DNA from: Malacoraja senta
Taxonomy: Eukaryota
Assembly: GCA_038087875.1 (NCBI GenBank)
Contig: CM075991.1
Span: 10,666,001-10,730,000 of the forward strand
Direction of reading: 5' to 3'
Length of the DNA: 64,000 bases
The position numbers were made by a program, and so were the translations under genes. Under the pieces are notes generated by a model. The model did no database searches. It was not told where the DNA came from and saw only the letters and a list, made by a program, of their open reading frames with translations. Shown here one piece after another: positions 1,311-59,527 of this stretch (positions within the stretch are counted from its first letter, which is position 1; every line of letters begins with the position of its first letter).

Positions 1311-1324
1311 AATAGGAAGCTCAT
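1311..1324 (-). CDS. MOB1A: MOB kinase activator 1, first coding exon (MSFL + 2 nt); rest of the gene lies left of the window
   Basis: The minus strand reads ctagcagaaa ATG AGC TTC CTA TT|gtaagt. This is a 14-nt coding first exon with a perfect donor, matching the MSFL(F) start of MOB1A/B. A versus B is assigned only by linkage to MTHFD2 and SLC4A5. Confidence 0.75.
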
Positions 1325-2109
1325 TTTCTGCTAGTTTGTTCCACTCGAAATGGGCGGAAAAAGTCTGGGGTTATTTTTTTAAGGTTTTGAGTAGCGTAGA
1401 CATTACAATCCGATCCACTTTCGGGAGGCGGGAGGCGGGAGGTGAGTCCAGGCCTCTCTCTGCCTCTGTGTGTGTGTGTGTCTCTCCCGTCACAACTTGA
1501 CCAACTCTCTCCGCCTCAGGCCGACAAGCCTCGCGAGACCCGCCCCCCTCCCCCCCCCTCGTGGGGGAGGGACAGCGACTATGCAAATCACGCCGCTGAT
1601 CGACATCCATCCGAGCCAATCGGAGGCCGCCAATTCACGGCCGGGGCTCCAGATCCACCAATGGGAAGAGGGCGGGGGCGGGGACTGGCGGCCGGGGGGT
1701 GGGGGGGGGAAACAACCTACACTTTATTCAAAAAAACAAAATGTCTTTACTTCCCAGTGGGATAGTTTTTTTAAAACTCTCTAACCGTGAGGCGACGAAG
1801 CAAAAACAAAACAAAAAACGAGCGTCGTTGTTAAAATAAAATATATATAAAGGTTTTGATTGACATGTTGGCGAACCAATAGGCATCTTGAACGCTTCAA
1901 CCTATCAGCGGTAGGGAGAGGCGGGCTTTGTGGAAATGTTTGAGAGAATAGTAATATCTTATACAGGAAGGGTGGTTCGGTGTGTTTTTTGTGATGTTTT
2001 GGATAAACAAAATTCAATAAAAATAAATGTTTGGGCGTCTCAATAAAAACGGTTTGTTTTTTGTGGTGACGACATAATGGGGGAGGATTGTACCCGGCGT
2101 GTGACGTCA

Positions 2110-2149
2110 GCGCGCCGGGCGGAGCAGTCGGCGGGCGGGCGAGCTGAAG
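2110..2149 (+). other. candidate non-coding first exon (1a) of the hnRNP H-like gene; 5' end approximate
   Basis: Strong donor AAG|GTAAGA at 2149/2150, just downstream of the CRE in the CpG island. Confidence 0.45.
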
Positions 2150-2344
2150 GTAAGATGTCGCGCCCGACCCCCGCCGCCGTTTGGCCGCTCCTCCCTCCCC
2201 CCCGGTTATCCCCAGGCCCGAAACCATCCTGTGCGTTCGGGAGGATGTCTGTAGTTTTAAGAAAATGTCTCTGTACGGTGGGGGCGGGGGGGTTGTGAGG
2301 GGGGTGGGTGGCGGGGATGGACCGGGGCCGACACGAGGATGCCT

Positions 2345-2385
2345 GGCGTTGTGAGGCGCGGCCGCCATTTTGCTGCGCTCTGGGG
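2345..2385 (+). other. candidate non-coding first exon (1b) of the hnRNP H-like gene; 5' end approximate
   Basis: YY1 motif followed by donor GGG|GTGAGT at 2385/2386, a typical housekeeping first-exon layout. Confidence 0.55.
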
Positions 2386-2854
2386 GTGAGTGTGAGTGTG
2401 TGTGTGTGTGTGTGTGTAATGGACGGTGGACGCTCACAAACTCGCCTTCGCTCGACGGCTCCAGCGGTTTGGGGGCACCGATTATCCACCCCCCGCTCGT
2501 TTACTTCCCGTGCTCGACTGGTTCTGGGGAGCTTATCCCCGCTCGTTTGAGGGAAATACCTCCGCCTTCCCTCTCCCTCTCTCTCCCCCCCCCCCCCCCC
2601 CCCCCACGGTGGGGGTGTGTTTGTAATGAAACGTTGGAGGTGTTCCGGCCAAAGGTGGCCGAGTGTGTGCCCCCGCCTCGTGAAGCTTTGATGGGAGCTG
2701 CTGATCCTAACTGTTTCTTCCATATGTGTATATATAAAGACACACACACACACACACACACTTGAAATACACTCTTTCGAATGACGCCAGAGATGTTTGT
2801 GAGTCTAGTGTGCCTGCCTCGAGAGGCTTTTATCGGAGCTGCTGACCCTAACAC

Positions 2855-2990
2855 TTTGTTTAAGAAGGAACTGCAGATGCTGGAAAATCACAGGTACACA
2901 AAAATACTGGAGGAACTCAGCGGGTGCAGCAGCATCTATGGAGCGAAGGAAATAGGCAACGTTTCAGGCCGAAAACCTCCTTCAGACTGA
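2855..2990 (-). mobile_element. Penelope-derived short element with degenerate hammerhead motif
   Basis: Matches the ttaagaaggaactgcagatgctgg...ccttcagactga family found throughout the window. Confidence 0.7.
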
Positions 2991-4155: not shown

Positions 4156-4649
4156 GTTGTTCCCTTGCTGCATGACTCATTCTCCAAAATGAATATATAT
4201 GGCCGATTTATTTATCCTCTTTTCCATGAGCATCAAGCCTCCATTAGCATCAATGGGAGCTCTTGGTTGCTCTTCCCCTCCTTTAACTGTATCCTCTGCA
4301 TTGCCTTCTCGTCTTTGCGTGTGTGTGTATAATCCTGGAATGCTCTTATATATGCTTTATTTAATTGCAGTGAACTATCTTCACTCATGTTCACTGGTTA
4401 GTAAAGTCTGAAGTGCTAAGCTATTAGCTGAGCACATTAAAGACCCAACAGGTTTGTGCAGCACCATCCAATGAAATGTAAAACTAACCTTAAGGTTTTA
4501 ACTTGACAGCCTTGTTCCAATCAGAATGTATAGTAATACATTAGGTATTTGCTTTTAATTTTTCAAAAAGGATTGTTATGGCAGACCTATCATTTTAAAT
4601 TTTCTATTTTTTCAGACATTTTCTTGAACATCCATAATCAGGCATTCAA

Positions 4650-4728
4650 ATGGAGGAAGATTTTATTGTCAGAATTCGTGGACTTCCATGGTCATGCACT
4701 GCCGATGAAGTGTTGCGGTTTTTCTCAG
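4650..4728 (+). CDS. hnRNP H-like coding exon 1 ([26 protein letters not shown]); exon begins 4616
   Basis: Acceptor ttttttcag ending 4615, ATG at 4650, donor at 4729; start of qRRM1. Confidence 0.92.
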
Positions 4729-7700
4729 GTTTGGTGAATTTATGTGAATGGTTTGGAACTTTGCGTTTCAAGTGCAGGGGGCTGACTTAAAATTTGAACT
4801 CCAGACTGAATGGATTTTCAAATACATTTGATCAGTAATGTTGATGTATGGGGTGGGGGCTTATTTTCACACTGAAAGGCAGCCATCAAACAGGCAGTAG
4901 CTGCCCCAACAGGATGTTTCCAACATTTATTTCTCCCTCTTATTTCCATGTACCCTAACTGCCTATTTTATTAGAAGCCCATCAACCATTGATAGTATTA
5001 CCATTTATTAACTCTAGGTAAATTACAATAACCAAGTAACCTGCCAACATATTTAAGATAGATCTGAGTTTGATCTTACTGGAGCATTCTTAGTTCTCTA
5101 CTCACTTCAAAACTATCGTTGAGAGTATGGAAATCCTGGCCTGGCAGCTGATTATGACCAAAGGAGGGAAGGCATACTTGGCACAGTTTTAATTGTAAAA
5201 GTTTTGCCATTGAGTGACAATGTTAATTGCTAGATTAATAAATTAATCCATTTTAAATGTCCTAATGTGCCCACTATTTCTCCTACTCCCCTCGGTTGGT
5301 TGATTTGACATTAAGGTCAGCTTTAAAGATGGAGATAAATGATACTTGCCACCATTTATATTGGCTTTCAGTTTTGATGATAGCCAGCACTTTTAACGTG
5401 TCTTTTCATTCAGAACATAGCTTTTTTTTGTTTCCCTGCTTTTCAGAAAATATGCCAGTAATTCATGTATTTTCAGATTGCAAGATAGTAAACGGAACTG
5501 GTGGAATACACTTCACTTATTTGAGAGAAGGACGCCCAAGTGGAGAAGCCTTTGTTCAGCTACAAACCGAGGAAGATGTAAAAGTTGCCCTTGCAAAAGA
5601 TCGTGAAAGCATGGGACATAGATACATTGAAGGTAAGCTTGTTTCAAATTGGAGGGACACAGCCTAAGCTTGGGTCTTTATTTACTGAATTCCTTGTGCT
5701 ACATTAAGTAATGAGTGAAGTTTAATCATTCTGCTTTTGAAGCAAGTAAGTAGTTTTGGGGGGTGTTGTTGATTATTCCAGTGATCTTTCGGTTGTCTTC
5801 CACAAATTCTGCTCTAAACTTCAAACCTCTTAATAACGAGCACTAAATCCAAAGGTTATTTTATTGTCACGTGTACCAATTAAGGTATAGTGAAACATGA
5901 TTTACCATACAGTCATACTTTTAAAAAAAAGCAACAAAGCACACAACTACATAAAAGTTAACATAAACATCCACCACAGCGGATTCCTCACTGAGATGGA
6001 AGGCAATAAAATCTAATCTTCACTCTTTATTCTCCCGCGGACGGGGCAGTCGAACCATCCGCAGTTGGGGCGATCGAAGCCCCCACGTCGGGGCGGTCGA
6101 AGCTCCTGCGGCCTGGAGCTCCCGAAGTCTGTCCCTAGCTAAGGGACCGCGAGCTCCACGATGTTAAAGTCCACAGGCTCCCGCAGCTGGAGGTCCAAGA
6201 TCGATCCCCTAACGGGGATCGCCAGCTCCACGATGTTAAGTCCGCAGGCTCCCGTGGTTGGAGCTCCCAAAGTCCATCCCCAGCAAGAGGCCACCAGCTC
6301 CTTGATGTTAGGCCGCAGTGTGGACGGAGATACGATACGGAAAAAAATCGCGTCTCCGTCGAGGTAAGAGATTTTTTTAAAGTTTCTCCCACCCCCTACA
6401 TAAAACAAAGCTAAAGAGCACTTAAATGTACATTTACCACAAACTAAAAAGCAACAAAGAAGAAAAGGACGAGACAGACTGTTGGTTTGGCAGCCACTGT
6501 GGCGCCACCCGGTGGAGTTTCCTATTCATCAATTGCTTCTTTTCGTGCTGACTTAGAAAGGTTTCTGCTTAGGTAAAATTATTTTTGAGTTTGAAACCTT
6601 TTCAATTATCGTTGTGGCCTACCCTCATTTCTAACCTTTCCTTTGTGAATTTTTGCAGAGTAGCTAATTCTAAAGTTTGGCTTCCTTCACTTGAATTTTC
6701 CTGGCATTTTAAGTGGGGATTGGGAGGGGAAATACCCTTGCAGATGAACTGTTAAGATCCTGCAGTTTTCCCTGCATAGTTCCTTTACAATGTTGTTTAA
6801 GCCCTGTCTGACTGCATTTCTGACCTCCTGTATTCCTTTTATTCCTGGATGTTGTTATTGTTTGGTGCCTAGGTGATATTTGTGGTCAAGATGCTGGCTG
6901 CACAAGAAGACGACAATGTTTGAGTGCAATGAATCCATTTATTTGCTATTAAGTACTGGGATAGGTAATTGAATGTATGGGAAGGTAATGTGTGCATGGT
7001 GTACTTTAAGATGGACCTGTTAAAAACTGACACGTTTGGCTGATCAGGAAAATAATGGAACTTCTGTGTGACTTATTAGTGTCTCAGGATTAGGCATACG
7101 TTTTGTTTATACTTGAATGATTCGTGAATCATCTTATATTTAACCCATGGTACAGAATTTGATGGCTGTGTCTTGTGCAGAGAGTGTTTATGCAATTCAT
7201 ATTTTGGGATTGAATTGGGTTTCTTCAGCCAGTGAACTTTAATTTTAGTGACCACTTACTCTCCTTTATTGAAAAGTTTGAATCATTTAAATTGTTGGGC
7301 ATTGAAATCACACATTCAATAATTAAAAGATAAGTATGCATGTTTTGAATGGGATCAGCTGGGTGGGAATTCGTAATAAAATTGTTTGTTTTCATTTAGC
7401 AGATTGTTCATTTCTTGGTTCCCTTGAATTTGTTTGGCTTAGCAACTGCAGAGGATGTGATTTTGTTTTGAGCAGATTTTGATCTTGAGCTGTTCGATTT
7501 TGAGAAAACCGAACGCTTGAATCTACAATGGAATTAAGCCGAAAGTCTATTCATAAGGTGGCAGTTATACAGAAAAAAATAAATGTGAAATATCCAGGGA
7601 AGTATCTATACTACCTGTGTGTAGGAACGATGCAAAAGTTGGATAACAAAGTTGGTGTGAACGGTGACCAAAAGTCACAGTGGGCTCAGCTAATGAGCCT

Positions 7701-10700
7701 GTTCCATGCTAGATCTTTGAATCTTCAGTTTTGTATTTTATGGGGCAAATGTCTGTGCTATCTGAACTAATCCAGCAGATTATTGTAATTAATGCAAATG
7801 GGATGTTTATCTCTGGTCATTGATATTTCCTCGTTGATGTTTTGCAGAAATGATTGTAGATTAAGATTTTTGTTAGTATTTTAACTTGTATTTACAGTTT
7901 TTGAAACGAAAGCCACTGAAATGGACTGGGTACTAAAACACGTTAACCCAACTCAAACGGAATCAACAAGCGATGGAACAGTACGCCTTAGAGGCTTACC
8001 CTTTGGATGCAGCAAGGAGGAAATCTTGCAGTTTTTCACAGGTACTCATTGCTTGTTTATTTTCTCCAGTAATGGAACACCAAATACTTGGACATATTAG
8101 CTGGCGAGGTGTTGATGTCATAGTAATGTTAAAATAAATTGATTTGTGGGAAAAGATTGGGTGTATTTGTTTTGTAATTTTGTATATTCTTTGTTTTGGG
8201 TGTTGCTGTCCAAGGCTGATATAGAGTATTTTGTTAACTGGGTGTGGGATAGTTAAATCACTTTTTTTAACTTGGCACATAGCATTGGGCACAAGGGTTT
8301 TTTAACGGCTTTCAAAAAGAAGTTCTACAATTCAGCAGTTATCTCCAGTGAAGGCATTTTTTTATGACAATGCTTAATGTAATTACAGCAAATGTGCAGA
8401 CTACAGAAAACTAATGGCTGGTTTGAGTATTTGAGGTACATTGTAGAACAATGTTAGCTTCAGTCTAGCAAAAGGTATTGGACCAGGTTTTGAAGGCACA
8501 TTTCTATATCGTAGTGACTTTTGATTTTCAAAGTGAAAATTATATTTGTTGGCGAAATGCTAACATTTTAAGCTAGTTTCATTGAATGCATTACTTTTTT
8601 TTTTAAAGGCACCTAGGGCCACTATCACAAGTTCTATTTTTACTTTTCCATGCCTCGATTTAAAACCTCATAAATATCAATCCTTGAGTCCAATTTTGTG
8701 AGCCAGCGGCTATAAATGTTATTTTAATATTTGAAGGAATACTTTAGAAAAAGTTGCTCTGGCATAGGAATTACTCAGAAGCATCGCCTTGTAAGTTCAT
8801 AAATAATAGCCTGGTGTTCCATGCATGTTTTTTTTTTAACGGATACAGTTTATCTGACTTTGAATTGTTTTCACTCTTTTTGTAGTTTTATAAATATTTG
8901 TATTGTAGAATTGATAATTTTAATACTAAAATGCAAGTAAAACATATTTGGTGTTGTTATTCTAAACTATTCCTTCATCACTGGGTCAGCTAAGATTTGG
9001 GTCAGTTGAGCTAAAAATTTGGAATCTGATGTGGCACTGCAGAATGGTAGATGCAGATATGTGTCTGCTGTCCTGAGTGTTTCTAACTTTGCCAATGTGG
9101 GGGGGTCTCTTAAATGTTGGGTCACTTACTCTTAACAGGAAGGGTAGCCTGGGATGGTGCACCTCTAGCCGTTGGCTACAGTGTTGACTGTTCCTGTCAA
9201 CGCTCCAAGCCTGCGCCGCCAAAAGTGGCAACACAACGGGATAAGAATGTAGTGGTTCTCCCTTAAATTGGGTTATTTGTATCCATGTTGACCTTTTCAA
9301 AAGAATGTAAGATTTTATTTTTCTGCTGATACCTCAGTTACTGTCTGTGAAGAATTTGTAATGGGGCCCAAATGTCTGCAGTATTTATAAAAGTAGAATG
9401 CCTCGGACTCTTTAGATGATTAGTGGACTACGTGTACAAATATGCCAGGAGGGTCCAACCATGCTTTTGACCTTGTGTTGTTCTCTCCCTCTCCCCATCT
9501 GAAAGTACCAACTGTTTTGAGTTAAGTGTCACGTTGGTGGTTCCTTGCTCATATGGCTACTTTATCAGGTGTTAAACCTTTCGATAAAGATTATCAACCA
9601 TGGGGTGAGGTCGAAATCCTTGCTGTAATTATTAAGTCTAATTGAGATAACTGGGTGGTAGATATAGGAATTCTGGCGTAGTGGTTTAGTGCAGTAAGAA
9701 GTTAGCTCTGGGGCCGAGTGATTTGACAAGTTGCGCCATTGGTCTGCTCTGTGATTATTTCAAGAGATTAAGCAGTTTAGTTGAACTTGTTGCTGTAATT
9801 TAAATCCATTTAAAAGTTCAATTAGATGAAGTATGGTTGAGGTACTAGTTCAGTGATTATTTAGCTAGTCTAATGTCCTAGCTAACTTTCTTCACAGTCA
9901 GTAACTTGGAGCTTGTAATGTAAGTGAGCACTTATTTTTTTTTTTAAGACCTTGCTAAATTTGTGTATTGACACAGAGTTTGCTTGGTGAATGCACTGTC
10001 TGTATGATGCTAATTATGTAAAGCAAATGGATCTGGATTGGGTTTCTGACATAACTCTAGAGGTTTTTTGCATCTTTTATCATTGCAAGACTTAAACAAT
10101 TCATTCACTCAGTTTGGTACTGTGTAAATGATTTGTTTCCATAGTCAATTCCAGTTGGATATTGTTGACCTTTTTCTTGATCAGATGCATTAGTTTGGGT
10201 TATTTTTCTCCCCTTTGGGTTTGCGGGTTTAAAATCGCAGTGTAATTTAATTTGTCACAATCCAATTAAACGATGATTTGCTTTGTTCATCCTGAGAGCA
10301 ACAATGGAGCAGGAGTATGGACGCCCAACTAAGATGCTTCACTCCAAGTCACGCACCTGTTGACTTGGAAATGCAACTCTTTTGTATTCATTATTGATCT
10401 AAATCTATCGAACAGCGCCGAGTAGACTGCTAGTAAAGCTGATGGCTAGATACTACCATCTTGATCGCACCTGGACACAAATACTGGGCATGGCAGAGAT
10501 GTCCACGTCCTGTGCAATATTTTTTCAAGGACAAATTAATCATCCTTTCATAAATTGTACTTTTTGGTTAGTCAATTGTTTTTATTCCAGGTGTAATGCT
10601 AGGAATCAGTTGGAATGTTGTCAATGTGGCTGCATCCATGTTCCATAGCTGCGTTTACTATTCGAGATGGTTTTTAAGCATCCGCATTCTTTTCAAACTT

Positions 10701-13700
10701 TTTTAATTTGAAATTGTGTTTATTTTGTTTTTTGAATCTTTGCTTTATTTAATCAGCATTATACTGCCTATTGCCTCATTAGTCAATTCTGATATCATTA
10801 CTCAACATTTGATATTGCTGTAGTATGTGTATAAGAGTAGGAATGTTTCAACTTTTAATATTGTTCCCCTTGTGGGGTATTTGTCCTTGGGTTGAAGGGT
10901 TGGAAATCGTGCCAAATGGGATAACATTGCCGGTGGACTACCAGGGGAGAAGCACGGGGGAAGCCTTCGTGCAGTTTGCCTCAAAGGAGATAGCTGAAAA
11001 AGCACTGGGGAAACACAAGGAAAGAATAGGGCACAGGTGGGGCTGGACGGAAGGGTGGCTCATATGTCTTTAAGCCCACATGTTCAGGTTGCAGAATTAA
11101 TTCATTCTTGAAGAGAAAATAGTCGAACCACCCACATGCCTTTGGAAAACAGTGGGGACTCAACTGATTTTTCTAAATTGTGTAAAAGATGTCCTATACT
11201 GTAGAGCCCTCAGTTTAGAGTTGAAAGTTAATGACAAATGTAATCTGTTGGGCATTTGGAAATCTGCACTTGCATAATTTAAATTTCAATAATAAATTTG
11301 CAGAATTTTGATCGTCCAGGGGGGCTCCACAGTTTAGGATTATCTGATGAGAATGCGGAAATTGCAATTGTTTAAATTTGATTCAATTTTTAAATACTTT
11401 GCTACATTTGGATAAACTAAATTATATATGCAAAATTAAGTTACATTTATGTAACAAACCAATATTACATTGTCAAGCCTTTGTTGTAAACAATTTTCTC
11501 AGCTTAGTGCGTGCAGCGCACAGCACTGCAGGCTTCAGTCGTCATCTAACCTAATGGGAAGGTGATGACTAGTCAGCTTGCTAATTTGTATTTAATTCAA
11601 ACATTTCAGATTTGATTGATTCAGTATTTGGATTTGCACTTGGAAGCGTCGGTATAGTCAAATTAATGAAATATGTAGCATTTGCTTATGTTGTGTTTCA
11701 CAAACTTGTTCTGCTTTTTTAAAAGCAAAATGTCTGACTTGGTCTTGCACAATTTGGAATCTTGTCACATTTGTGTTGAAAGTCCAGGTTTGTGTTGGCC
11801 TCAAGCATTATGTCCCATATGTTTAGATCATACGTAATAGGAGCAGAATTATGCCATTCGGCCCATCAAGACTACTGCGCCATTCATTCATGGCTGATCT
11901 ATCTCTCCCTCCTAACCTCATTCTCCTGCCTTCTCCCCAAAACCTCTTACACCCGTACTAATCAAGAATCTTATCTAAGGTAGACACAAAATGCTGGAGT
12001 AACTCAGCAGGACAGGCAGCATCTCTGGAGAGATGGAATGGGTGACGCTTTGGTGACGAGACTGTTCTTCAGACAGACCATTCCTTCTCCGGTAATGCTG
12101 CCTGTCCCGCTGAGTTACTCCATCATTTTGTGTCTACCTTCGATTTAAAGCAGCATCTGCAGTTCTTCCCTACACATAAGAATCTTATCTATGTCTGCCG
12201 TGAAAAATATCCACTGACTTGGCCTCCACAGCCTTCTGTGGCAAAGAATTCCACGGATTCACGACCATCTGTGATTGTGATGAAATAAATTTCTCTTTGT
12301 CTCTTTCCTAAAAGAACGTCCTTTAATTCTGAGTCTATGACCTAGATTCTCCCACTAGTGGAAACATCCTCTCCACATCCACTTTATCAAAGGATTTCAC
12401 TATTCTGTACGTTTCAATGGGGTTCCCCCTCATTCTTCTAAATTCCAGTTAGTACAGGCCCAGTGCTGTCAAGTGCTCATCGTATGTTAACCAACTCATT
12501 CCTGGGATCATTCTTGTAAACCTACTCTGGACCCTCTCCAGGGCTAGCACATTCTTCCTCAATTTTGCCCAAAATTGCTCAACATTCCAAATGCAGCCAG
12601 ACCAGCGTCTTTTCGAGCCTCAGCATTACATCCCTGTGTTTATACACAAGCCCGCTCACAATAAATGCTAGCATTCTGTTTGCTTTCTCTACCACCAATT
12701 CAACTTGCAGATTAATTTTTTGGGAATCCCGCACAAGCACTCCCAAGTCCCTTTGCATTTCCGGGAGCTTGTTCTGGATTCTCTTATTTGAGGAGGGTGG
12801 GGGTGGCAGCAATGGAAGGACAATATTTCATGGGGATATAGTACAAATTATGGGATGTGCTGCCGCTGGGCTTTTATGTCCTTAAGGATATAATTGCCTT
12901 GTAGGTGAAACGGTGGTGAATCGGTGCATATTGCATGTTCATTTCCTTCCTTGGATGAAGAGAAAAATTTAGTAAACTGGGCCTCTATGCTGTGTTTCAG
13001 AAGAATGAGGGACAATCTTATTTATGTTTGGTCCCCTCACAGAATGTTTGTCCACAAGGTTAATTCCCTGGGTGGAAGAATTATAAGGTTTGGTGGAGGT
13101 GTCTTGGAAAGGAAAGGTCATTAATGTCAGACATTTCTTTTTGGGGATTCTGAATCTTGGAAAGTGTTGCCCCAGTGACTTGTGGATGCTGAGTGCTACT
13201 GGACCACAGTATTGTTGGGGTTGGGCAGGAAAGTAGAGTTGAGGCCGATCATTGGAACAATCATAATCCTGAAGATAGACATAATATGCTGGAGTAACTC
13301 AGCGGAACAGGCAGCATCTCTGGAAAGAAGGAATGGGTGATTCGGGTCGAGACCCTTGTGAGTGTGTGTGGTATGACCTGCTCTGGCTTGTTCTTATTTC
13401 ATCTTGAGTGCTTTTCCAATTTGGCCGTGAAAGTGCACACATGCCTCTTCAAATGATCCTATAATTTTTCTGTTTAGCTGTTCAATCCCTCCATTCCAAT
13501 GTGTTCTAACAAGTCAGACATTTATTCTAATTTATAGATATATTGTTAACAGATATTGTGGATATCTTCATGGATATAGTTTATTTAAATGTTAATGATG
13601 CCAAGTCCAAGTAGATTGATTGCTCTGGTGAAAAGTTAACTGAGTTTTTCAATTTAGTTAATTAACACTTGTTACTATGATTCCCAGTGGCCTTGCCAGA

Positions 13701-16700
13701 GAAGATCTGATTTTATGGTTGACGTTGTACTTATTTCAGTCAGGTAAAATATGAGAGCATTTGGAAAAAGCTGTTTCATGTTTCACTCAACTAATGCAAA
13801 CTACCACTAGTTTTCTGCCACGTAACTAGATATTAAAGTATGTAAATACCACTGAGGTGTCATTGACTGGGAGTCAAGTGTGCTCCATCTTTAATAGCCA
13901 TGTTGTTAGCATTGATATTCCAGTCAGATTCTGTAACAGTGACAGAGGCTGTCCACTGTTCCTTGAACATGGATAAGGAGTTAACTATTTAGTACTGATG
14001 TGGCCCTGGTGACATTGTCTTGTAGTGTACTCGGCTGATGTGGGTAAAAACAAAAAGGGGGGTCTTCTGATTCTTTTCACCAGAGGAATCTACAATTGTG
14101 TGATTAACATTTTAAACAGATTTTTAATATGGTCATGACCATAAAGTAAATGTATTAATTGTGGCTGTTCAGGTATATTGAAATCTTCAGAAGCAGTCGA
14201 GGAGAGATTCGAACTTATCAGGATCCTCCGCGAAGGTTAATGGGACAACGTCCAGGACCATATGACAGACCAATGGGTGGAAGAAGTGGGTATGGTGGTC
14301 CAGGCCCTATGCGAGGGGACATGTATGACCGTTCACGCCGAAACTCTGCTTATGGCGGTGGTAAGATTGAGGAGTTTTTTTCAAGTCTGCAACTTCAAAC
14401 GACTGTTTAACTGAAATGCTGTGTGTTAATAGGCATGATTTTTTACTCTGCCTATTTTCCCCCATGCTTATCCATCTTGGATTTGTACCAAATGGATAGA
14501 TAATCATGATAGGGTCGACTTGGTCGTATCCATAAGTTATAAGGTCATAAGTGATAGGAGTAGAATTATGCCTTTCGGCCCATCCAGTCTACTCCGCCAT
14601 TCAATCATGGCTGATCTATCTCTCACTCTCCACCCGATTCTCTTGCCTTCTCCCCATAACCCCTGACACCCGTACTCAGCACCCTCATTACCCGTTACAC
14701 ATCTTTGGGGTGTGGGGGGAAACCCTCGCGGTCACAGGAAGAACGTGCAAACTCCACATAGACAGTGTCGGAGTACAATAGATCCTTGTCTGGAACAGCA
14801 AGCGGAGAGTCGCCACTTTGCAGTGCCATCTAGCAACTTCCATAGAAACATCCAGGCAATACCGTTCATTGATACTTTAAACAAGGGAGGGCACAACTTG
14901 TGTTTCGTACAGACTCTCAAGTTTATTTCTCCTCCAGGCTACGGCAACTATGAGGATTACGGTTATAATGATGGTTATGGGTATGGACGTGATGGATATG
15001 GACACAATATGAGAGCAGTTGGAATGATGGATAGAGGTATGAATCTCGTGTTGGCTTAAGTTTTTATTGTTCTGTGTGTTGTGGATAAGATATAGTTATA
15101 TAGAGCGGGAGCAGATCTTTCAACCCACTTGAGGACAATGCTGGAGTAATGCAGCAGGTCAGGCAGCATCTCTGGAGAATATGGATAGGTGATGATTTGG
15201 GTTGAGACCCTGAGTTATTCCAGCACTGTGTCCTTTTGTGTATTAACCAGCATCTGCCGTTGTTTGTTTCTATATTTCAACCCAGTGTCCACAATGACGA
15301 GGTATTGATTTATATAAATTCTACAGCGGTCTCCATATTTGATCACTCCAGTGTACCTGCTGGTACATCCTTGGGATACGGTCACTGGGAGAACATAAGA
15401 ACTCTGCATAGCACTGGAGGTTAAGATTGAAAATGGATTGATGTTAGTGTGAAGCCACAGCTCTATGAGCTCCCCATACTGCATTTCTCACCTGCCGCAC
15501 AGTGAAGCTTGTTTTTGTTTTTTAACTGGGGGGGGGGGGGGGTAAAGAAAAATTCTGCCATTGAATAAGATACTCAATGACACCAAGTGTGTTTTAAATA
15601 ATTTGATCTTGGAGTTGCATGTTCAATGTAGTTGGGGGATTGGATGTGCAGCATTGGGGAAGTACTTCTCTCTGAGGGAGACCTGCTCGGATATAACAAG
15701 ATAATTAGTTTGATTTGTTTTTTTAAATGTTTCATCGTTTTGTTCTAGACTTGGTGGCTTTCCAGCCTTGGTTTGGTTTCTGGTGTTTTGAATGCTGTCT
15801 TCTTTGTTGTTTGCAGGGATGAGTAACCGTGGTTATGGTGGAGCAGGAGATGCCAGTCCACTTTTCCAAAATGGTACAGGTCATTATGTACACATGAGAG
15901 GACTACCCTTTAGAGCTTCGGAAGGTGATGTTGCCGATGTAAGTGGAATATGGGGTATTGTATTTAACCTAAAATGGGAAATGTTTTGGGAAAATCCTGA
16001 TGGCATTTTCCATTACATTTGAGATATGATTGTTAATAACTTAAGATAGAGGAGAGCACTAAAACACTTGCTGGAGTGGGATTTCACCATAAAACATCTC
16101 GAGCTAAATATTGGATGAAGCTCCTGTGATATCAAGGGCCCACAGTAGAAAACTTCACTGGCATTGACACTGATTTATTAACTGCTTAGCTTTGCAGTTG
16201 AGACTGTATATTGCTGCATTTCACGCTGGGATAAGAATATTTACCTGGTTTTGCTTTGTACGGATATAAATAAGGTGCATATTTCTAGTGTCAGTTCTGA
16301 GTTGGCACATGTGGTAAAAATGGGTGGAAAAAAATATTCTTGCTATTTATTACTGCTCAACTTTTTTTCTCTGCAGTTTTTTTCACCGCTCATTCCCGTT
16401 AAGATCAACTTTGAATATGGCTCTGATGGGCGTCTGACTGGAGAAGCTGATGTTGAGTTTGCCACTCATGAAGATGCTGTTGCTGCCATGTCTAAAGACA
16501 GAGCACATATGCGTGAGTGATTAAAATCATAAGTTGCTGGAGCAGGATTAGACCATTCGGCCCATCAAGTGTGCTGCACTGTTCAATCATGGCTGATCTG
16601 TTTCCCTCGCAACCCCATTCTCCTACCTTCTCCCCAGAATACCCTTGCTAATCAAGATTTGTGCAGTTTTATAAATGTTAACGCTATTATATTATAAGTG

Positions 16701-17242: not shown

Positions 17243-17276
<34 letters not shown>

Positions 17277-21665: not shown

Positions 21666-21671
21666 AATAAA
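21666..21671 (+). terminator. polyadenylation signal of the hnRNP H-like gene
   Basis: AATAAA followed by U/GU-rich sequence, about 1.1 kb after the stop codon. Confidence 0.65.
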
Positions 21672-27147: not shown

Positions 27148-27148
<1 letters not shown>

Positions 27149-45200: not shown

Positions 45201-48200
45201 AGGGGGGGGTCAAGAACCGGAGGGCATGAGTTTAAGGTGAGGGAGGGAAAGACAATAAATACCTAAGGGGCAACTTGTTTATACAAAGGGTGGTGGGGAT
45301 ATGGTACAAGCTGCCGGAGGAGGTAGTTGAGGCAGGTAATATCGCAACGTTTAAGAAGCGTTTAGACGGGTACATGGATTGGGCAGGGTTGGAGGGATGT
45401 GGGCCAAATGCAGGCAGGTGGCACTAGTGTAGCTGGGACATGTTGATCGCTGTGAGCATGTTGGGCCGAAGGGCCTGCTTTCATGCTGTATGTCTGACCC
45501 CGTGGTGGACATGTCCAATACTAGAGGGCGTAGCTATAAGGTGAGAGGGGGGAAAAGTTTAATGGAGATGTGCGGGGCAATTTTTTAAAAATTACACACA
45601 GAGAAGGGTCTGTTTCCATGTTGTACCACTGACACTTGTGTGTAGGTCGGCATTGGAAAGTTGGGCCGAAGGGCCTTATGGTTTGGTTCATTGTTGACTT
45701 TTTTTCCTCAGAACATCTCGATGAGCGCAAGATCTGCAACGCCGTGTCTCCCACGAAAGATGTGGACGGGTTTCACGTCATCAACGTGGGCCGCATGTGT
45801 CTCGACCAGAGCTCCATGTTGCCCGCCACTCCCTGGGGCGTGTGGGAAATTATCCAGCGCACAGGCAAGTAAAATACCTTTGAAGGCGCATCTGTAGAAG
45901 TTGGTGAGGGTTGTTGGGGACATGCCGAACTTTCTAAGCCTTCTAAGGAAGAAGGGAAGATGGTATATGGACACACTGATCAGTTCTGTAGTCATGCCTA
46001 CCATATTCTGTTGTGCTGAAGCAAAGCAAGAATTTCATTGTCCTATCTGGGACACATGACAATAAACTCTTTGAATCTTGAGGAAGGTTCATGAGTTAAC
46101 AGTGCACCGTTATGTCCTTCAGGAATTGCGACCCTCGGAAGAATGTGGTAGTTGCTGGGCGGTCAAAGAACGTTGGGATGCCCATCGCCATGCTGTTGCA
46201 CACAGATGGTGGGCACGAACGGCCAGGAGGTGAGTTGATAAATAATTGTCCGGTCAGATACATGGATAGGACGGGTTTAGAGGGATATGGGCCAAACGCA
46301 GGCAGGTGGGACTAGTGTAGATGGGCGACATGTTGGGCGGTGTGGGCAAGTTGGGGCCTGTTTTCCTCACACTATGGCTCTATCTATATTTAAAACTGTG
46401 TGTGTTTCTGCCTGTTTTGTGGGTGCCAGCCTTCCTTTGATTCCTTGCTACGCCAACACCACACGCAGAAACGCCGAGATGTTTTCCATTTCAGTAGAGA
46501 TTTCACTTTTCATTCCAAGTATCCACTCCTGATTAGATTTAGTCGTGTTTATGTACACATTTTTAATAAAATCCTTCCTCCCCCCCCCCCCCCCCCCCTA
46601 CTCGCTCATTTTGTCTCCTCCTGCTGGCCAGCCACCATAACGGCTGCTGCCGTCCGGCTCTGCTCCAAAAACAACGCCATTTTTTTTCTTTCGCTAGCGA
46701 TTTTCTCCCCGGGGTCTGAAGCACGTTCGGGGTCCAGACCCAACGGGTCTGCACTTGGTCTAGTGAGTCTATGTACGTGTTGGAAATGGAATCTAAGGCG
46801 TGTATTGTTTTGCAGGTGATGCCACCGTGACCATCTCGCATCGATACACCCCCAAAGACCAGCTGAGGGAGCATACGAAGCTTGCTGACATCATTGTGGC
46901 CGCTGCAGGTGAGTGGACGGGTGACTGGGAACGTTGAGGCTACAAGGCAGTCTTCCTTAAGGTCGTAAGGTCATTAGGAGTAGAATTTGAATAAGGAAAT
47001 TCCTGCGTCTCCTTCTGAAAAGAACATCCTTTAATTCTGAGGCTATGACCTCTAGTCCTAGACTCTCCCGCTCGGTGAATTGGCTTCTGTAAATTATTCC
47101 TCATGTGCGTGGGATAGTGTGTGTGTACGGGGGATCCCAGGGAGTGGACAAGAAGGTGGGACAACATAGAACTAGTGTAAACGGGTGATTGATGGTCAAG
47201 ACGGACTCGATGGGCCGAAGGGCCTGTTTCCGCCCTGTATCTCTAAACTGAAACTGGGACCATTGTCATAAGTCGAAATCCTGACCTCGGATGCTGTCTG
47301 TATGGGGTTTGGCCCGCTGAGTTACTCCAGCATTTTGAGTCTATCTTCAGTTCAAACCAGCATCTGCTGTTCCTTCCTACACCATTTGAATTGATCCCTC
47401 CAAGTGGAGGAAACGAGTGGTCTGAAGAAGGGTCTCGACCCGAAACGTCGCCTATTTCCTTCGTTCGATAGATGCTAACTCATAATAGCCCTGTCCCACG
47501 GTACGAGTTCATTCCAAGAGCTCTCCCGAGGTTAAAAAAAAATCAAACTCGTGGTAAGCACGGAGAATGAACGTAGCGGGTACGTCGGAGCTCGGGGACG
47601 TCTCTCAGCGGCTCGTAACGCAAACGGCAGGTACTCGGGAAGACTCGCTAACGGCAGGTAAGCGCGGGAAGACTCGTGAAGATTTTTCAACATGATGAAA
47701 AATGTCCACGAGAGCCCCGAGTACCGACGAGCGGCCATTACCGTAAATCTCCGAGTTCGAATCAGGGCAAACTCGGGAGAGCTCTTGGAATGAACTCGTC
47801 CCGTGGGACGGGTTTTACCCACTGAGTTTCTCCCGCATTTTTGTCTACCTCCAAGTGGAGGTGTTGCTGTTTGTGACCCCGAGCCTTGTTCCTTGCAGGT
47901 ATTCCCAACTTGATCACCGCTGACATGATAAAAGAGGGAGCTGCTGTCATTGATGTTGGCATCAATCGTGTCCAAGACCCGGTCACTGGCAAGCCCAGAC
48001 TCGTGGGCGACGTGGATTTTGAAGGTAAAGGAATGAATCGTATGGTAATAGACCTATTGTCTATTGTAATGTAGCACAGAATCTGTCCCAAGCCAGAAAC
48101 ATAGAAAATAGGTGCAGGAATAGGCCATTTGGCCCTTCGAGCCAGCACCGCCATTCAATGTGATCATGGCTGATCATCCCCAATCAGTACCCCGTTCCTG

Positions 48201-49299
48201 CCTTCTCCCCATATCCCCTGACTTGGCTATTTTTAAGAGCCCTATCTAGCTCTCTCTTGAAAGCATCCAGAGAACCGGCCTCCTCCGCCCTCTGAAGTAG
48301 AGAATTCCACAGACTCACCACTCTCTGTGAGAAGTGTTTCCTCGTCTCTGTTCTAAATGGCTTACTCCTTATTCTTAAACTGTGCCCCCTGGTTCTGGGC
48401 TCCCCTAACACTGGGAACATGTTTCCTGCCTCTAGCGTGTCCAAGCCCTCAACAATCTGGAGACATGATGGCAGGAACATTACAGCAAGCACAACGATTC
48501 ACTCTGGAATGATAATGTGTTTCCCCCCCTCTGGGTGGTCACTACTAATTGCTGCCTGCCTGCCTGGATTACTCGGCCTTATTTAATGGCCAGTGTAACA
48601 TAGTCAGTGGGCCATCTAATGGTCTTGCTAACCTGGGGAAGTCTTACCTCTGCATCAGTAGGATAGCATGCTGCAATGGATAGCTCTCTGCAGCTATCCT
48701 GATACAAACTCTCGACCATTATTTGAATGTCCTAGATCAAGGGTTCCAAACCCAGGGGTTGAATTTCCACTTTCACTTTAAATTTTCATTTTCACTTTCG
48801 AGGAACCTTTCACTTCCTTATCTCTGTATCTCCCTCTCCGCTGACAGCAGTCTGAAGATGGGCCTCGACCCGAAACGTCACCCATCTTCCTTCTCTCTGG
48901 AGATGCTGCCTGTCCCGCTGAGTTACTGCAGCATTTTGGGCCTGATCAGTTCGAATGGGGGGGGCTGAGTTTGGGAGTGGGTGACGTTTCGGGTCGACAC
49001 CCTTGCAGTCTGAAGTCGCCCATTCCTCCTCTCCAGAGATGCTGCCTGTCCTGCTGGGTTACTCCAGCATTTTGGGTCTATCTTGGTGCATGGATTGAGG
49101 TAAGGCAGGAAGCTACCCCACCCCTTCCCCCATCCCCCCACTCTAACCTCCGGACCTTTTGTTGCTTTATCCAGGGGTGAAGAAGAAAGCCAGTTTCATA
49201 ACACCGGTGCCAGGCGGGGTTGGCCCCATGACGGTGGCCATGCTGATGAAGAACACCATCATCGCAGCCAAGAAGCTTCTGAAACAACGGGACAACTGA
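27148..49299 (+). CDS. MTHFD2: mitochondrial bifunctional methylenetetrahydrofolate dehydrogenase/cyclohydrolase, 8 exons, ~335 aa; 1-nt deletion in exon 5 as given
   Basis: Join 27148-27242, 34455-34639, 40011-40133, 45712-45864, 46123-46229, 46816-46908, 47899-48024, 49175-49299. Motifs [41 protein letters not shown] and [19 protein letters not shown]. Residues match MTHFD2 better than MTHFD2L. Confidence 0.93.
27340..27790. repeat. ~450-bp low-complexity polypyrimidine tract
   Basis: Almost exclusively C/T on the + strand. Confidence 0.9.
27821..27829 (+). promoter_or_regulatory. candidate ATF4/CEBP (CARE) element TGATGAAAT in MTHFD2 intron 1
   Basis: Matches TGATGxAAx; a second match, TGATGTAAT, is at 28135-28143. 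Confidence 0.4.
28832..29598. mobile_element. palindromic Penelope-like element terminus with 15-bp TSD, inserted in a CR1 tail
   Basis: Inverted arms 28831-29158 and 29244-29559 both encode the GIY-YIG C-terminus [27 protein letters not shown] tactgattctggatg at 28817-28831 and 29599-29613. Hammerhead core at 29467-29494. Confidence 0.88.
29760..30140 (+). mobile_element. Rex1/Babar-type LINE 3' fragment
   Basis: [30 protein letters not shown] followed by a 3' UTR tail. Confidence 0.65.
31040..31315 (-). mobile_element. HE1-type (V-SINE) tRNA-derived SINE
   Basis: A/B boxes (ggttcgatcc), V-core gtttgtacg...tttcctcccac, CR1-like tail. Confidence 0.75.
32319..32441 (-). mobile_element. fold-back Penelope-derived short element with 16-bp TSD
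   Basis: TSD acgtacaatacaatag at 32303-32318 and 32442-32457. Confidence 0.85.
32673..33076. mobile_element. PIF/Harbinger-type MITE (outer), TAA TSD
   Basis: TIRs tgggcctgtcccactta / taagtgggacaggccca flanked by TAA at 32670-32672 and 33077-33079. Confidence 0.8.
32809..33028. mobile_element. PIF/Harbinger-type MITE nested in the previous one, TTA TSD
   Basis: agggcctgtcccacttg ... caagcgcgacagtccct flanked by TTA on both sides. Same family as 44765-45004 and 62737-62966. Confidence 0.78.
33222..33524 (-). mobile_element. HE1-type V-SINE
   Basis: tRNA head (ggtggcgcagcggtagagttgctgcc), V-core and tail. Confidence 0.8.
34455..34639 (+). CDS. MTHFD2: MTHFD2 exon 2
   Basis: 185 nt, ttccag/gtatgt boundaries; [10 protein letters not shown]...NKTKAAADV. 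Confidence 0.95.
35390..35715 (+). mobile_element. HE1-type V-SINE
   Basis: tRNA head, V-core, tail ...ctgtatctctaaa. Confidence 0.8.
35860..36250. mobile_element. PIF/Harbinger-type MITE with ~60-bp TIRs, TTA TSD
   Basis: agcccctgtcccacttaggagacctaaacagcaacctctgg...cgccacccaa is mirrored at about 36189-36250; TTA on both sides. Confidence 0.8.
36525..36945 (-). mobile_element. CR1-type LINE 3' fragment
   Basis: Minus-strand ORF2 C-terminus and tail, similar to 53320-53795. Confidence 0.7.
37903..38400. mobile_element. non-autonomous hAT-like DNA transposon
   Basis: 14-bp TIRs tagggtcgccaact / agttggcaacccta (1 mismatch) and subterminal (a/c)gggac repeats. Confidence 0.75.
40011..40133 (+). 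CDS. MTHFD2: MTHFD2 exon 3
   Basis: 123 nt, aacag/gtaagg boundaries; [10 protein letters not shown]...[11 protein letters not shown]. Confidence 0.95.
40240..40650 (-). mobile_element. RTE-derived SINE / non-autonomous element
   Basis: The minus-strand head ggattgtcaccttgtcgtggtggag...gggccacccatggc resembles RTE (BovB/Expander-type) 5' UTRs as recalled. It ends in aagaagaa and has no ORF. Confidence 0.6.
41450..41750 (+). mobile_element. HE1-type V-SINE
   Basis: B box ggttcgatccc, V-core and tail. Confidence 0.75.
42092..42345 (+). mobile_element. Rex1-type LINE 3' fragment
   Basis: RKAGSVLG...[42 protein letters not shown]. Confidence 0.7.
43064..43456 (-). mobile_element. HE1-type V-SINE with a short internal insertion
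   Basis: tRNA head near 43450 and tail near 43065; about 90 bp of foreign tail at 43260-43350. Confidence 0.7.
43930..44400 (-). mobile_element. CR1-type LINE 3' fragment inserted in a V-SINE (about 43795-44520)
   Basis: ORF 44128-44397: [29 protein letters not shown]. Confidence 0.8.
44765..45004. mobile_element. PIF/Harbinger-type MITE
   Basis: TIRs agggcctgtcccact / agtgtgacaggccct. Confidence 0.75.
45712..45864 (+). CDS. MTHFD2: MTHFD2 exon 4 (GC donor)
   Basis: 153 nt; [14 protein letters not shown]...[10 protein letters not shown]; donor CAG|GCAAGT. Confidence 0.92.
46123..46229 (+). CDS. MTHFD2: MTHFD2 exon 5 (107 nt; apparent 1-nt deletion near 46137-46140)
   Basis: GIATLG reads in one frame and [30 protein letters not shown] in another; ttcag/gtgagt boundaries. 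Confidence 0.88.
46816..46908 (+). CDS. MTHFD2: MTHFD2 exon 6
   Basis: 93 nt; [17 protein letters not shown]...ADIIVAAA. Confidence 0.95.
47486..47814. mobile_element. PIF/Harbinger-type MITE, family with agccctgtcccacgg termini
   Basis: ~45-bp TIRs; near-identical copies in the opposite orientation at 59709-60038 and 61268-61597. Confidence 0.78.
47899..48024 (+). CDS. MTHFD2: MTHFD2 exon 7
   Basis: 126 nt; [25 protein letters not shown]...VGDVDFE. Confidence 0.96.
48098..48455 (-). mobile_element. young CR1-type LINE 3' fragment
   Basis: ORF 48184-48492; near-identical to 57687-58060. Confidence 0.8.
49175..49299 (+). CDS. MTHFD2: MTHFD2 exon 8 (to TGA)
   Basis: [41 protein letters not shown]. 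Confidence 0.95.
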
Positions 49300-50663: not shown

Positions 50664-50669
50664 AATAAA
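50664..50669 (+). terminator. candidate MTHFD2 polyadenylation signal
   Basis: AATAAA about 1.36 kb after the stop, just before repeat-dense DNA resumes. Confidence 0.5.
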
Positions 50670-52555: not shown

Positions 52556-52568
52556 TCTCTGGAGAAAA

Positions 52569-56700: not shown

Positions 56701-56946
56701 TTAAGGACAACCATCATATGTCATCAGTAGTAAGGATGCTATTGGAGCCAAAATTGTTCAACTCAGTGTAATGTTCCAACTGGGCAGAGGGTGGGAGGTT
56801 TTCCACTCCACTGGTTAGGTCGGGAGAGAGTTCACCACTGATACCTGTATTCCCACTCCAAAATGATGTATGTATGTAGAGTTTGGAAACTCAAATATAT
56901 CAGCAGTAGCTTTCAGAGATCGGCACTGGCCAAGTTCACATAACTT

Positions 56947-57080
56947 GTTTAAGAAGGAACTGCAGATGCTGGAAAATCGAAGGTAGACAAAAGTGCTGGA
57001 GAAACTCAGCGGGGGAGGCAGCGTCTATGGAGCGAAGGAAATAGGCAACGTTTCGGGCCGAAACCCTTCTTCAGACTGAT
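56947..57080 (-). mobile_element. Penelope-derived short element with an intact hammerhead core on - (57047-57074)
   Basis: The reverse complement reads CTGAAGAAGGGTTTCGGCCCGAAACGTT. Confidence 0.75.
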
Positions 57081-57686
57081 TATCTATGGAGCGAAGGAAA
57101 TAGACAAAGAGATTTTTTCTTTTCTCTCTAAACTGAATTAAAAGCCGAACAATCAGGTCTGTTCATAAGTAAAACACGGAGTGCTGGAAGAACCCAGCAG
57201 GTCAGGTAGCATCTGCAGAGGGAATGGGCGTGTGTCGTTTTGGGTTGGGACCCTTCTTCAGGTTGATGGAGTTGGGGGAGAGAAAGATGGAAAGGAATGG
57301 TGATGAAGGAGCAGAGTGGATTCGGGCTATGGTTATTGTGGTGCAGCGTTCAAGAGCTGGATGGCTGCTGGAAAGAAGCTGTTCTTGAAGGAAGGAGATA
57401 GTATTCAACAGCCAAAAAAAGAAAAAAAAAGAAAAAAAACTTCCTTCCCTCTGCAGGGATGCTGATAACTTTTTTCGTTATATTTTGCTCTTCCTGGTGC
57501 TTTGAAGCTATCGGTTTTCTGCATCTGACCTCTCTCATAGAGTTAAACACAAACATGACACTAACCACCAACTCAACCCACTTTGGGCCGATCTCCGTCA
57601 CTCTTTTTCAGCGATGTAATGAACTGCAAATGCAGGAATCTTGTGCTGAACACAAAATACTAGAGGCGCACAGCAGGTATCAAACG

Positions 57687-58060
57687 TAGACAATAGGTGC
57701 AGGAGTAGGCCATTCGGCCCTTCGAGCCAGCACCGCCATTCAATGTGATCATGGCTGATCATCCCCAATCAGTACCCCGTTCCTGCCTTCTCCCCATATC
57801 CCCTGACTCCGCTATTATTAAGAGCCCTATCTAGCTCTCTCTTGAAAGCATCCAGAGAACCTGCCTCCACCGCCCTCTGAGGCAGAGAATTCCACAGACT
57901 CACCACTCTCTGTGAGAAAAAGTGTTTCCTCGCCTCCGTTCTAAATGGCTTACCCCTTATTCTTAAACTGTGGCCCCTGGTTCTGGACTCCCTCAACATC
58001 GGGAACATGTTTCCTGCCTCCAGCGTGTACAAGCCCTTAACGATCTTATATGTTTCATTG
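57687..58060 (-). mobile_element. young CR1-type LINE 3' fragment
   Basis: ETYKIVKGL...[11 protein letters not shown]...LWNSLPQRAVEA plus tail. Confidence 0.8.
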
Positions 58061-59361
58061 AGAGTCAACAGCAGCAACAATGACCTTATGTTAGAGTGCA
58101 CCAAATTGGCATCTATGCCAAACCTGTAATGTCTTAATAAAAACAACGTTAGTACGATACGTTTGGACTCTCTACCCTCTCTTTTCAAAACATCCAGTGA
58201 ATTGGCCTCCACCGCCTTCTGTGGCAGAGAATTCCACAGATTCACAACTCTCTGGCTGAAAAAAGTCAAGGACCACGACAGCTGATGTTTTTGGGTCGGG
58301 ACCCTTCTTCAATCCTGCTCCGTCAGTCTGAAGGAAGGTCACAACAAGCGAAACATCGGCTGTCCATTCCCTCCCCAGTGGCTGCCTGACCTGCTCCAAT
58401 TCCTCCGGCTGTTTGCGTTCGGCTCAAGATTCCAGCATCTGCACTTCTTGGTGGCTCCAGGTCTATCCATGGGAACGTTACCATGCAATTCCTCACCAAG
58501 CACGAAGTTAAATTGGGGAAGGCCACTGCGTTAATTTGCCATGCCTGGTACTTTCTACGGGTAATTGTAATCTCAAACACAACAATTACAAAATAAATTA
58601 AAAAAAAGAGTAAAGAAAAACATGGTTGATTTTTGTAGAGCATTCTTGATCTGTCAAGAATTTTCATCAAGTATTTCCACATTTGTGGCGCTTAAATAGG
58701 AATAACGTGAATCAAATGATACATCTAGGAATCTTTAAACTGCCACATTAAAATCAACTGGATGGTTAATAGCTACCTGACAGACCATCTAAGTTCTGCC
58801 TACTTTGCGCAAAGTGCAATATGATTAAAAATATATTTTTTTGTTGTAAAAGCAGAAAGTTGCTCTCACCATCAAAGCAACCCTGCAGACATGCATAGAG
58901 TAGAGAAGAGAAGACCTGCTTTTAATGGTATGGGTCTTAAAGGAAAGCTAGGCAAAACCGGGGCAAAAGATGCATGTACATCAGGGTCAACCTCTTCAAA
59001 ACATCCAAGTTAAAGGTCAAAAGAGAACTTACAATTGCTTAAAGCAACTTCCTAATGCCTGGGATCTCTTGCAATGTCTTGTCTTCTCATCTCAGCGGCA
59101 CTACCTGTTGTTTCCTAATCTTTAATAATAACGTCTTTGTCCGTTAAAACAAATTTTACACAGCACAGTTAAAGCGGGACACAGAAAGCGTAGAAGTCTT
59201 TGCTGGCAAGACATACTCAGGTGTGGGCAAAGAGCAGTTCTCGGGTGGGATGGACGCACACAAACACTGTCGGCTCGTCAACACTCCGCGAGGTCCGGGA
59301 GCTACCAAAGTCTCGCTGGTGGGACCTGTCGCAATGCTGAAGGGGGGGGCTGCCGAACAGG

Positions 59362-59527
59362 CTACAAGGTGGTCTCGCCGCCCAGGTCTCTCCGGCCCCT
59401 CTCCGTGTTTGCGTCGTTGTAATCGGACTCCATCTCGATCTTGAACTGCGGAACTGAGCAGGTGGTGCTCCGGGCGTGGCTGAAAGCAGGCGAGGGCGGG
59501 CAGGAAATCTTGAGGTGTAGAGTTATA
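59362..59527 (-). CDS. SLC4A5: SLC4 electrogenic Na+/HCO3- cotransporter, last coding exon (ITLHLKISCPPSPAFSHARSTTCSVPQFKIEMESDYNDANTERGRRDLGGETTL*)
   Basis: Strong minus-strand acceptor tttcctttcctaatctctcaacag. The open frame ends ETTL-TAG, and VPQFKIEMESD resembles the recalled NBCe1-C tail (VPQIRIELEPED...ETTL). A5 is assigned by tail-to-tail linkage with MTHFD2. Confidence 0.7.

Follow-up and report, generated by a model that had tools for sequence, protein, structure and literature searches.

The stretch of DNA considered here, referred to below as the window, comprises 64,000 nucleotides of the skate Malacoraja senta (GenBank assembly GCA_038087875.1, contig CM075991.1, positions 10,666,001 to 10,730,000, forward strand) and lies on contig C15 of the assembly that was searched (1.94 Gb, 6182 contigs). 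The gene order on this contig is TET(+), MOB1A(-), hnRNP F/H gene(+), MTHFD2(+), SLC4A5(-). The hnRNP gene, which we call H3-like, was proposed in the first-pass annotation of the window to be an intact whole-genome-duplication copy, neither H1 nor H3, kept in cartilaginous fish and lost in mammals.

The hnRNP H-family gene beside MOB1A

The gene is indeed intact. Its 11 coding exons occupy positions 4650-20526 (+), the introns are GT-AG in 10/10 cases and the 1365-nt reading frame encodes 454 amino acids without an internal stop. The protein is identical at 450/454 positions to little-skate XP_055518283 (RefSeq 'H3-like'), and the thorny-skate H3-like protein differs from that of the window by 5 residues. 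The exons are as follows.

2100..2149 (+), candidate non-coding first exon, ending at an AAG/GTAAGA donor; start approximate
4616..4728 (+), coding exon 1, with its acceptor at 4615 and the ATG at 4650; an in-frame TAA lies shortly before the ATG
5477..5632 (+), coding exon 2, 156 nt, first quasi-RRM (qRRM1)
7898..8041 (+), coding exon 3, 144 nt
10898..11036 (+), coding exon 4, 139 nt, qRRM2; rich in G-runs, GAAG acceptor
14173..14360 (+), coding exon 5, 188 nt, encoding the GYR region and its R-P-G-P-Y motif for nuclear localisation
14938..15036 (+), coding exon 6, 99 nt
15817..15938 (+), coding exon 7, 122 nt, in which qRRM3 begins
16377..16512 (+), coding exon 8, 136 nt
17900..18001 (+), coding exon 9, 102 nt
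19857..19964 (+), coding exon 10, 108 nt, in-frame cassette; without it the protein has 418 aa, as does RefSeq isoform X2 of three skates
20435..21687 (+), last exon, with the stop codon at 20524-20526; the 3' untranslated region has its AATAAA at 21666, and contigs from three runs end at 21673-21687

Three quasi-RRM domains are present: Pfam RRM_1 marks three stretches in a protein (P0001) that is 99% identical, and the alignment agrees. Exon 5 encodes the GYR region with the PY-type nuclear localisation signal (PY-NLS), as defined for the hnRNP F/H family in the available part of bioRxiv 10.1101/2025.11.04.686541. The 156/144/139-nt lengths of exons 2 to 4 are common to H3-like, H1 and GRSF1. 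Since an in-frame TAA stands immediately 5' of the ATG, H3-like has no room for a mitochondrial leader. Together the three qRRMs, the GYR region with its PY-NLS and this stop suggest a nuclear protein, and the 77-79% core identity to H1 and H3 points to a G-tract-binding splicing regulator of the H1/H3 type, as far as sequence can predict it.

Evidence of transcription comes from related organisms. Of 24 sequencing runs, none recorded as RNA, four were aligned to 13900-21700; the joint read table is dominated by repeats, and the read evidence is restricted to exons 5 onward. A 651-nt contig from a run of another organism (RNA by guess) matches exon 5 with positions 1-190 and exon 8 with positions 413-548, and the 222 nt between them equal exons 6 and 7 (221 nt) plus one base of exon 5; a 358-nt contig fits exons 6-8. 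Exons 5-8 are spliced in a relative. The last-exon contigs of three runs stop 2-16 nt past the AATAAA (21666-21671).

Phylogenetic position and distribution

H3-like fell outside the H1 and H3 clades in every tree, while the H1 and H3 clades each hold sharks together with bony vertebrates; the phylogeny thus bears out the proposal that the gene is neither H1 nor H3. In the core tree (52 rows, 278 columns, LG+G4, with invertebrate outgroups) the support was 100/99 for H3-like, 94/89 for H3, 100/96 for H1 and 100/100 for GRSF1; in the full-length tree (36 rows, 420 columns, no outgroups) it was 100/100, 98/96 and 100/100 for H3-like, H3 and H1; and in the mixture-model tree (30 rows) it was 100/99, 80/55 and 97/91, with GRSF1 placed beside H3 at 87/82. 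The four vertebrate clades separate from the invertebrates at 99/97 in the core tree and at 86/94 under the mixture model. For the 52-row tree, 20 rows were removed as near-redundant or long, and for the 30-row tree a further 22; a gopher 'F-like' row was left out as too diverged. The Callorhinchus 'H2' record P0019 looks like an N-terminal half of H1 joined to a C-terminal half of H3 and was replaced by P0200.

The closest relative of H3-like is probably H3. The two are joined in 361/500 bootstrap trees (support 72/39), H1 and H3-like in 95/500, and the closest paralog by identity is shark H3 (78.6-79.3%). Over the 276-278 core columns, identities are 89.6-91.7% for skate-chimaera orthologs, 82.6-85.3% for skate-tetrapod orthologs and 77.0-79.3% for paralogs. 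As the paralogs are less alike than the orthologs of sharks and tetrapods, the split that produced H3-like looks older than the split between sharks and bony fishes.

H3-like shares with HNRNPH3 (hnRNP 2H9) the three qRRMs of shark, fish and amphibian H3, a core identity of ~79% and low-complexity motifs; it differs in its separate clade, in 28 diagnostic residues, in having MOB1A and MTHFD2 as neighbours and in the absence of any RUFY match within 284 kb. With HNRNPH1 it has in common the intron positions where these were compared, the near-identical DNA of the 139-nt exon and the PY-NLS motif, but core identity is 77% and nesting within H1 is rejected on the full-length alignment (approximately unbiased (AU) test for grouping with shark H1, p 2.6e-9; p 0.0545 on the core alignment with outgroups); H1 also has a gene of its own in this assembly (contig C2322), and in little skate it stands beside Rufy1 on LER11. 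GRSF1 resembles H3-like in its head-to-head arrangement with a MOB1 paralog and in its exon lengths; however, core identity is 57%, its 139-nt exon has an ordinary pyrimidine-rich acceptor instead of GAAG, and it has an N-terminal extension, the mitochondrial leader, where H3-like has an in-frame stop before the ATG. HNRNPH2 and HNRNPF belong to the same family but arose in mammals by retrocopying of H1 and have no introns in their coding regions, whereas the coding region of H3-like has 10 introns.

Members of the H3-like clade were found in 9 protein clusters covering at least 21 species of cartilaginous fishes (skates, rays, sawfish, sawshark, sharks and the chimaera Callorhinchus; 15/16 members of one cluster are listed); the gene is kept across this class, as had been proposed. 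Each of the 9 clusters carries 24-28 of the 28 diagnostic residues that were defined on them. At most 2 of these residues occur in 113/113 other proteins, at most 1 in 49/49 further proteins, and at most 7/28 in 150/150 of the more distant proteins among the 50%-identity representatives (best 150 of 5057). The search with qRRM3 gave the 9 clusters 279-310 bits, against 262 bits for the best other protein among the matches listed.

No bony-vertebrate member appeared among the matches listed in four protein searches, three word-based (34 hits in one, and the best 120 of 2044 and of 633 in the others) and one a HMMER scan against the 50%-identity representatives, whose best 150 of 5057 included outgroups and GRSF1 but no relative of H3-like. 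Among the matches listed, bichir, gar, bowfin, sturgeon and lungfish were represented by H1 or H3 only and coelacanth by GRSF1 only. This pattern suggests a loss in the stem lineage of bony vertebrates. The loss looks wider than the mammals of the earlier claim and probably goes back to the ancestor of bony vertebrates. Zebrafish-type 'hnrnph1-like' proteins were considered as bony-fish orthologs, and all those examined fall in the H1 clade.

Gene neighbourhood and origin of H3-like

Exon mapping confirmed the order and strands that had been read from the window (MOB1(-), hnRNP H-like(+), MTHFD2(+), SLC4(-)), and comparison of bit scores identified the flanking genes as MOB1A, MTHFD2 and a paralog of SLC4A4.

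1311..1324 (-), MOB1A coding exon 1 (ATG plus 14 nt, then a GT donor); remaining exons upstream of the window
1501..2500 (no strand), CpG-rich interval separating MOB1A from the hnRNP gene, the two being head-to-head; CpG observed/expected 0.92-1.04, GC 0.51-0.61
27148..49299 (+), MTHFD2, 8 coding exons, of which exon 5 is out of frame by one base
59362..59527 (-), last coding exon of SLC4A5; gene body downstream, just beyond the window

The CpG-rich interval may serve as a bidirectional promoter common to MOB1A and the hnRNP gene. Against solved chains, MOB1 exon 2 scores 66.6 bits with MOB1A and 63.8/61 bits with MOB1B (36 identical residues). MTHFD2 exon 2 scores 86 bits with MTHFD2 and 71 bits with MTHFD2L. 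Human SLC4A4 matches an SLC4 gene of contig C1 (105.8 bits) better than the SLC4 gene of this locus (97.5 bits), and the latter is therefore a paralog, called SLC4A5 by exclusion and from its neighbours. The TET gene lies ~33-42 kb upstream on the same contig, and we take it to be TET3 from its residues and its neighbours. The region from TET to MOB1A (examined over -120 kb to 0 relative to the window) showed no BOLA3 motif; in little skate Bola3 is on Leri_17C, which differs from the mammalian order (PMC10115646, available part).

Some smaller features of MTHFD2 were also recorded. Its exon 5 (46123-46229) has 107 nt and goes out of frame by one base within a short purine run, probably through a sequencing error of the assembly; intron 4 is a GC-AG intron with its GC start at 45864/45865; and a (CAG)n run at 27118-27147 immediately precedes the start codon. 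Elsewhere in the assembly, two genes that we presume to be MOB2-like stand on separate contigs (C20 at 2.42 Mb and C3 at 18.27 Mb) and are possibly another retained ohnolog pair.

Searches of the assembly for other family members, with exon 4, exon 5 and one skate H3 protein as queries, found H3-like, H1, GRSF1 and distant qRRM genes. H1 stands on the 38-kb contig C2322 and is near-identical to RefSeq skate H1; the start of one of its exons is present twice, ~170 bp apart (22246-22275 and 22074-22103), reflecting either a local duplication or an assembly artefact. GRSF1 is on C5513, tail-to-tail with a RUFY gene whose C-terminal FYVE-like exon lies at C5513:77699-77872. Its qRRM3 exon (C5513:98478-98540) measures 135 nt against 136 in the paralogs, likely another assembly indel.

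The wider arrangement of these genes agrees with an origin in the two whole-genome duplications (2R) of early vertebrates. Human 2p13 presumably carries MOB1A(-), MTHFD2(+) and SLC4A5(-) with no hnRNP H gene, and RUFY2 presumably adjoins HNRNPH3. In cattle, the available part of PMC8505495 describes a block of SLC4A5, MOB1A, MTHFD2, BOLA3, TET3 and DGUOK, unnamed genes included, in which no hnRNP H gene is named, and RUFY3, GRSF1, MOB1B and DCK lie near SLC4A4 (PMC8328317, in part). The earlier statement that GRSF1 is divergent from MOB1B agrees with zebrafish, where rufy3(+), grsf1(-) and mob1ba(+) put grsf1 head-to-head with mob1ba (PMC9210284, in part). Human chromosomes 4, 5, 10 and 2/8 form one 2R paralogon according to the available parts of PMC2453138 and PMC3112091; the HNRNP family in the former is HNRNPD/AB and not F/H.

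The little skate provides four corresponding segments (PMC10115646, accessible portions). On Leri_35C, 30 kb separate Mob1a (11.70 Mb) from Mthfd2 (11.73 Mb), and on Leri_11C, 60 kb separate Rufy1 (44.02 Mb) from Hnrnph1-1 (44.08 Mb); Hnrnph1-2 is on Leri_15C at 43.3 Mb and Grsf1 on Leri_1C. Supplementary Table 3 of the same work assigns LER15, LER35, LER1 and LER11 to the 1-alpha, 1-beta, 2-alpha and 2-beta segments of linkage group I/Q, LER1 being partly doubtful, and beta segments lose more genes. Each of the four paralogous segments would thus hold one family copy with paralogous neighbours. Two of these placements are indirect: Hnrnph1-2 on LER15 would be H3, since the RefSeq record that holds H3 measures 46.0 Mb, and H3-like would be on LER35, since its own record measures 15.6 Mb. 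In Cetorhinus the records of H3-like (P0133) and H3 (P0187) have an identical length of 97,051,927 and close accession numbers, which suggests a fusion of the two partner chromosomes that carry them.

We consider it probable, at roughly 0.85, that H3-like is the fourth 2R ohnolog, situated on the 1-beta segment, probably sister to H3 and lost in the stem of bony vertebrates; HNRNPH3 would probably be its alpha/beta partner from the second doubling. The first-pass proposal of a remaining whole-genome-duplication copy is in this respect supported. An ancestral block of RUFY, hnRNPH and MOB1 would have been quadrupled, after which H1 and H3 would have retained RUFY, GRSF1 both RUFY and MOB1, and H3-like only MOB1, with its transcription from the promoter common with MOB1A; tblastn with skate RUFY exon frames over 284 kb around the gene gave no match under E 0.15.

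Several observations weigh against this interpretation. The shape expected from 2R, ((H3,H3-like),(H1,GRSF1)), was never the best tree, though not rejected; the union of H1 and GRSF1 was likewise not rejected (p 0.23). The branching of the four clades differs between models, the mixture model moving GRSF1 beside H3, and the trees contain no cyclostome or amphioxus sequences, none having been identified among the nameable hits. The two indirect placements count here too, and the synteny of H3-like was seen directly in this skate only. The absence from bony vertebrates is drawn from ranked protein lists and not from genome scans, so that a fast-evolving or unannotated copy would escape. Finally, canonical H3, RUFY1, RUFY2, TET1 and MOB1B were not found in the searches of the assembly.

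This last point touches the possibility that the gene is simply canonical HNRNPH3 (or H1), brought to this site by a translocation; the lack of any other H3 in the assembly speaks for it, but we regard it as highly improbable. The H1 version is contradicted by the H1 gene on C2322. As to H3, separate H3 and H3-like proteins occur in each of little skate, thorny skate and Rhinoraja, those of the first two, with H1, on records of different length; and the trees contradict translocation. The neighbours expected of H3, RUFY2, TET1, DNA2 and PBLD, are not found either (DNA2 and PBLD were searched as Dna2 and PhzC-PhzF), which points to a missing block, even though such searches are weak and miss exon-split genes, a dNK family search having given no match as well; no RUFY1/2/3-type exons were found in the assembly other than those of the GRSF1-linked gene. 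The assembly measures 1.94 Gb against 2.19 Gb in little skate. Given the separate H3 of three other skates and the one-base breaks in MTHFD2 and GRSF1, a gap in the assembly is the likely reason for the missing H3. The expectation that the same genome would contain separate H1 and H3 genes was thus satisfied for H1; H3, RUFY1 and RUFY2 were not found here, and the related skates show a separate H3.

Two further explanations accept the gene as a distinct paralog. A duplicate of HNRNPH3 specific to cartilaginous fishes, formed before the split of chimaeras and sharks, moved beside MOB1A and then evolving faster, would fit the restriction of H3-like to cartilaginous fishes among the matches listed, the low-complexity motifs in common with H3 and the position of shark H3 as nearest paralog; the AU test does not reject the grouping with shark H3 (p 0.128 for the core, 0.119 for the full length), which is a point against the fourth-ohnolog reading. 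Nevertheless, this grouping occurred in only 23/500 bootstrap trees, the H3 clade of all jawed vertebrates is supported at 98/96, shark H3 is nearer to frog H3 (82.6%) than to H3-like, and the duplicate would have had to land head-to-head with a MOB1 paralog, in the very position of GRSF1, on the sole 2R segment without a copy. We judge this improbable, and prefer the 2R ohnolog mainly because there is one member per segment and H3-like lies on the partner segment of H3. The quartet may alternatively not be a clean one: GRSF1 could have a separate origin, for example as an earlier tandem copy, H3-like being one of three H-type ohnologs. GRSF1 does fall outside H1+H3+H3-like in 407/500 LG+G4 bootstrap trees, and its position shifts between models; but GRSF1 is long-branched, its union with H1, although found in 4/500 bootstrap trees, is only 0.95 log-likelihood units worse, and it occupies the fourth segment with the same exon lengths and beside RUFY, so that this variant also appears to have little chance of being correct.

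Exon 4, possible dose control and the hnRNP H family

Exon 4 of H3-like is conserved in an unusual manner. With its flanks it is 90% identical to the DNA of skate H1 over 199 nt, and alone at 128/139 nt (92%), while other exons reach 70-79%; degenerate codons are identical to those of H1 at 35/40 positions in exon 4 versus 50/101 in exons 2, 3 and 8 (Fisher p 2e-5). Nine G-runs lie in and around it, the highest number among the 11 exons. If this exon were skipped, translation would end prematurely after 148 aa, the stop lying 687 nt ahead of the last junction. In mouse and human HNRNPH1 the 139-nt exon is skipped under the control of H1 and H2, and the product is degraded by nonsense-mediated decay (10.1101/2025.11.04.686541, available part). 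Family members might similarly bind the G-runs around exon 4 of H3-like and promote its skipping, whereupon the frameshift would lead to nonsense-mediated decay and cap the dose of H3-like as for mammalian HNRNPH1. This feedback is a prediction from analogy and sequence features. The high identity to H1 might alternatively be due to gene conversion between the paralogs.

The retention of an ohnolog in cartilaginous fishes only is not without precedent: 19 ohnologs that chondrichthyans retained and bony fishes lost were reported, wnt6b and cspg5 being named as retained ohnologs (PMC10115646, available text). H3-like shows the same pattern and may be among the 19, although the text passages do not name it. 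No description of the gene was found in the open-access full text to which the search extended, rather than subscription papers, including the available part of PMC10451939; RefSeq annotates the gene automatically under names that vary across sharks (H-like, H2-like, H3-like). As this class of genes is already known, specialists may find the case neat rather than startling.

The available part of 10.1101/2025.11.04.686541 describes five hnRNP F/H genes from mammals and links the family to neurodevelopmental disease and lymphoma. We find it slightly easier to believe than to doubt that the 2R quartet is completed by a fourth hnRNP H gene of nuclear type ('HNRNPH4') that disappeared a single time, in the stem of bony vertebrates, which would make mitochondrial GRSF1 a re-purposed ohnolog, and that the exon-4 feedback predates the first doubling, sharks running a three-gene cross-regulatory circuit where bony vertebrates have two intron-containing genes. 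The early date for decay-based dose control would follow from the feedback exon being 92% identical in DNA to that of H1 across the two sides of that doubling. A fourth ohnolog, if true, would explain the origin of the family, tie the mitochondrial role of GRSF1 to genome doubling and call for correction of the automatic names across sharks. The conserved exon 4 would provide a testable date for splicing-factor autoregulation, and also a natural test of why a dose-controlled regulator is lost in one lineage and kept in another.

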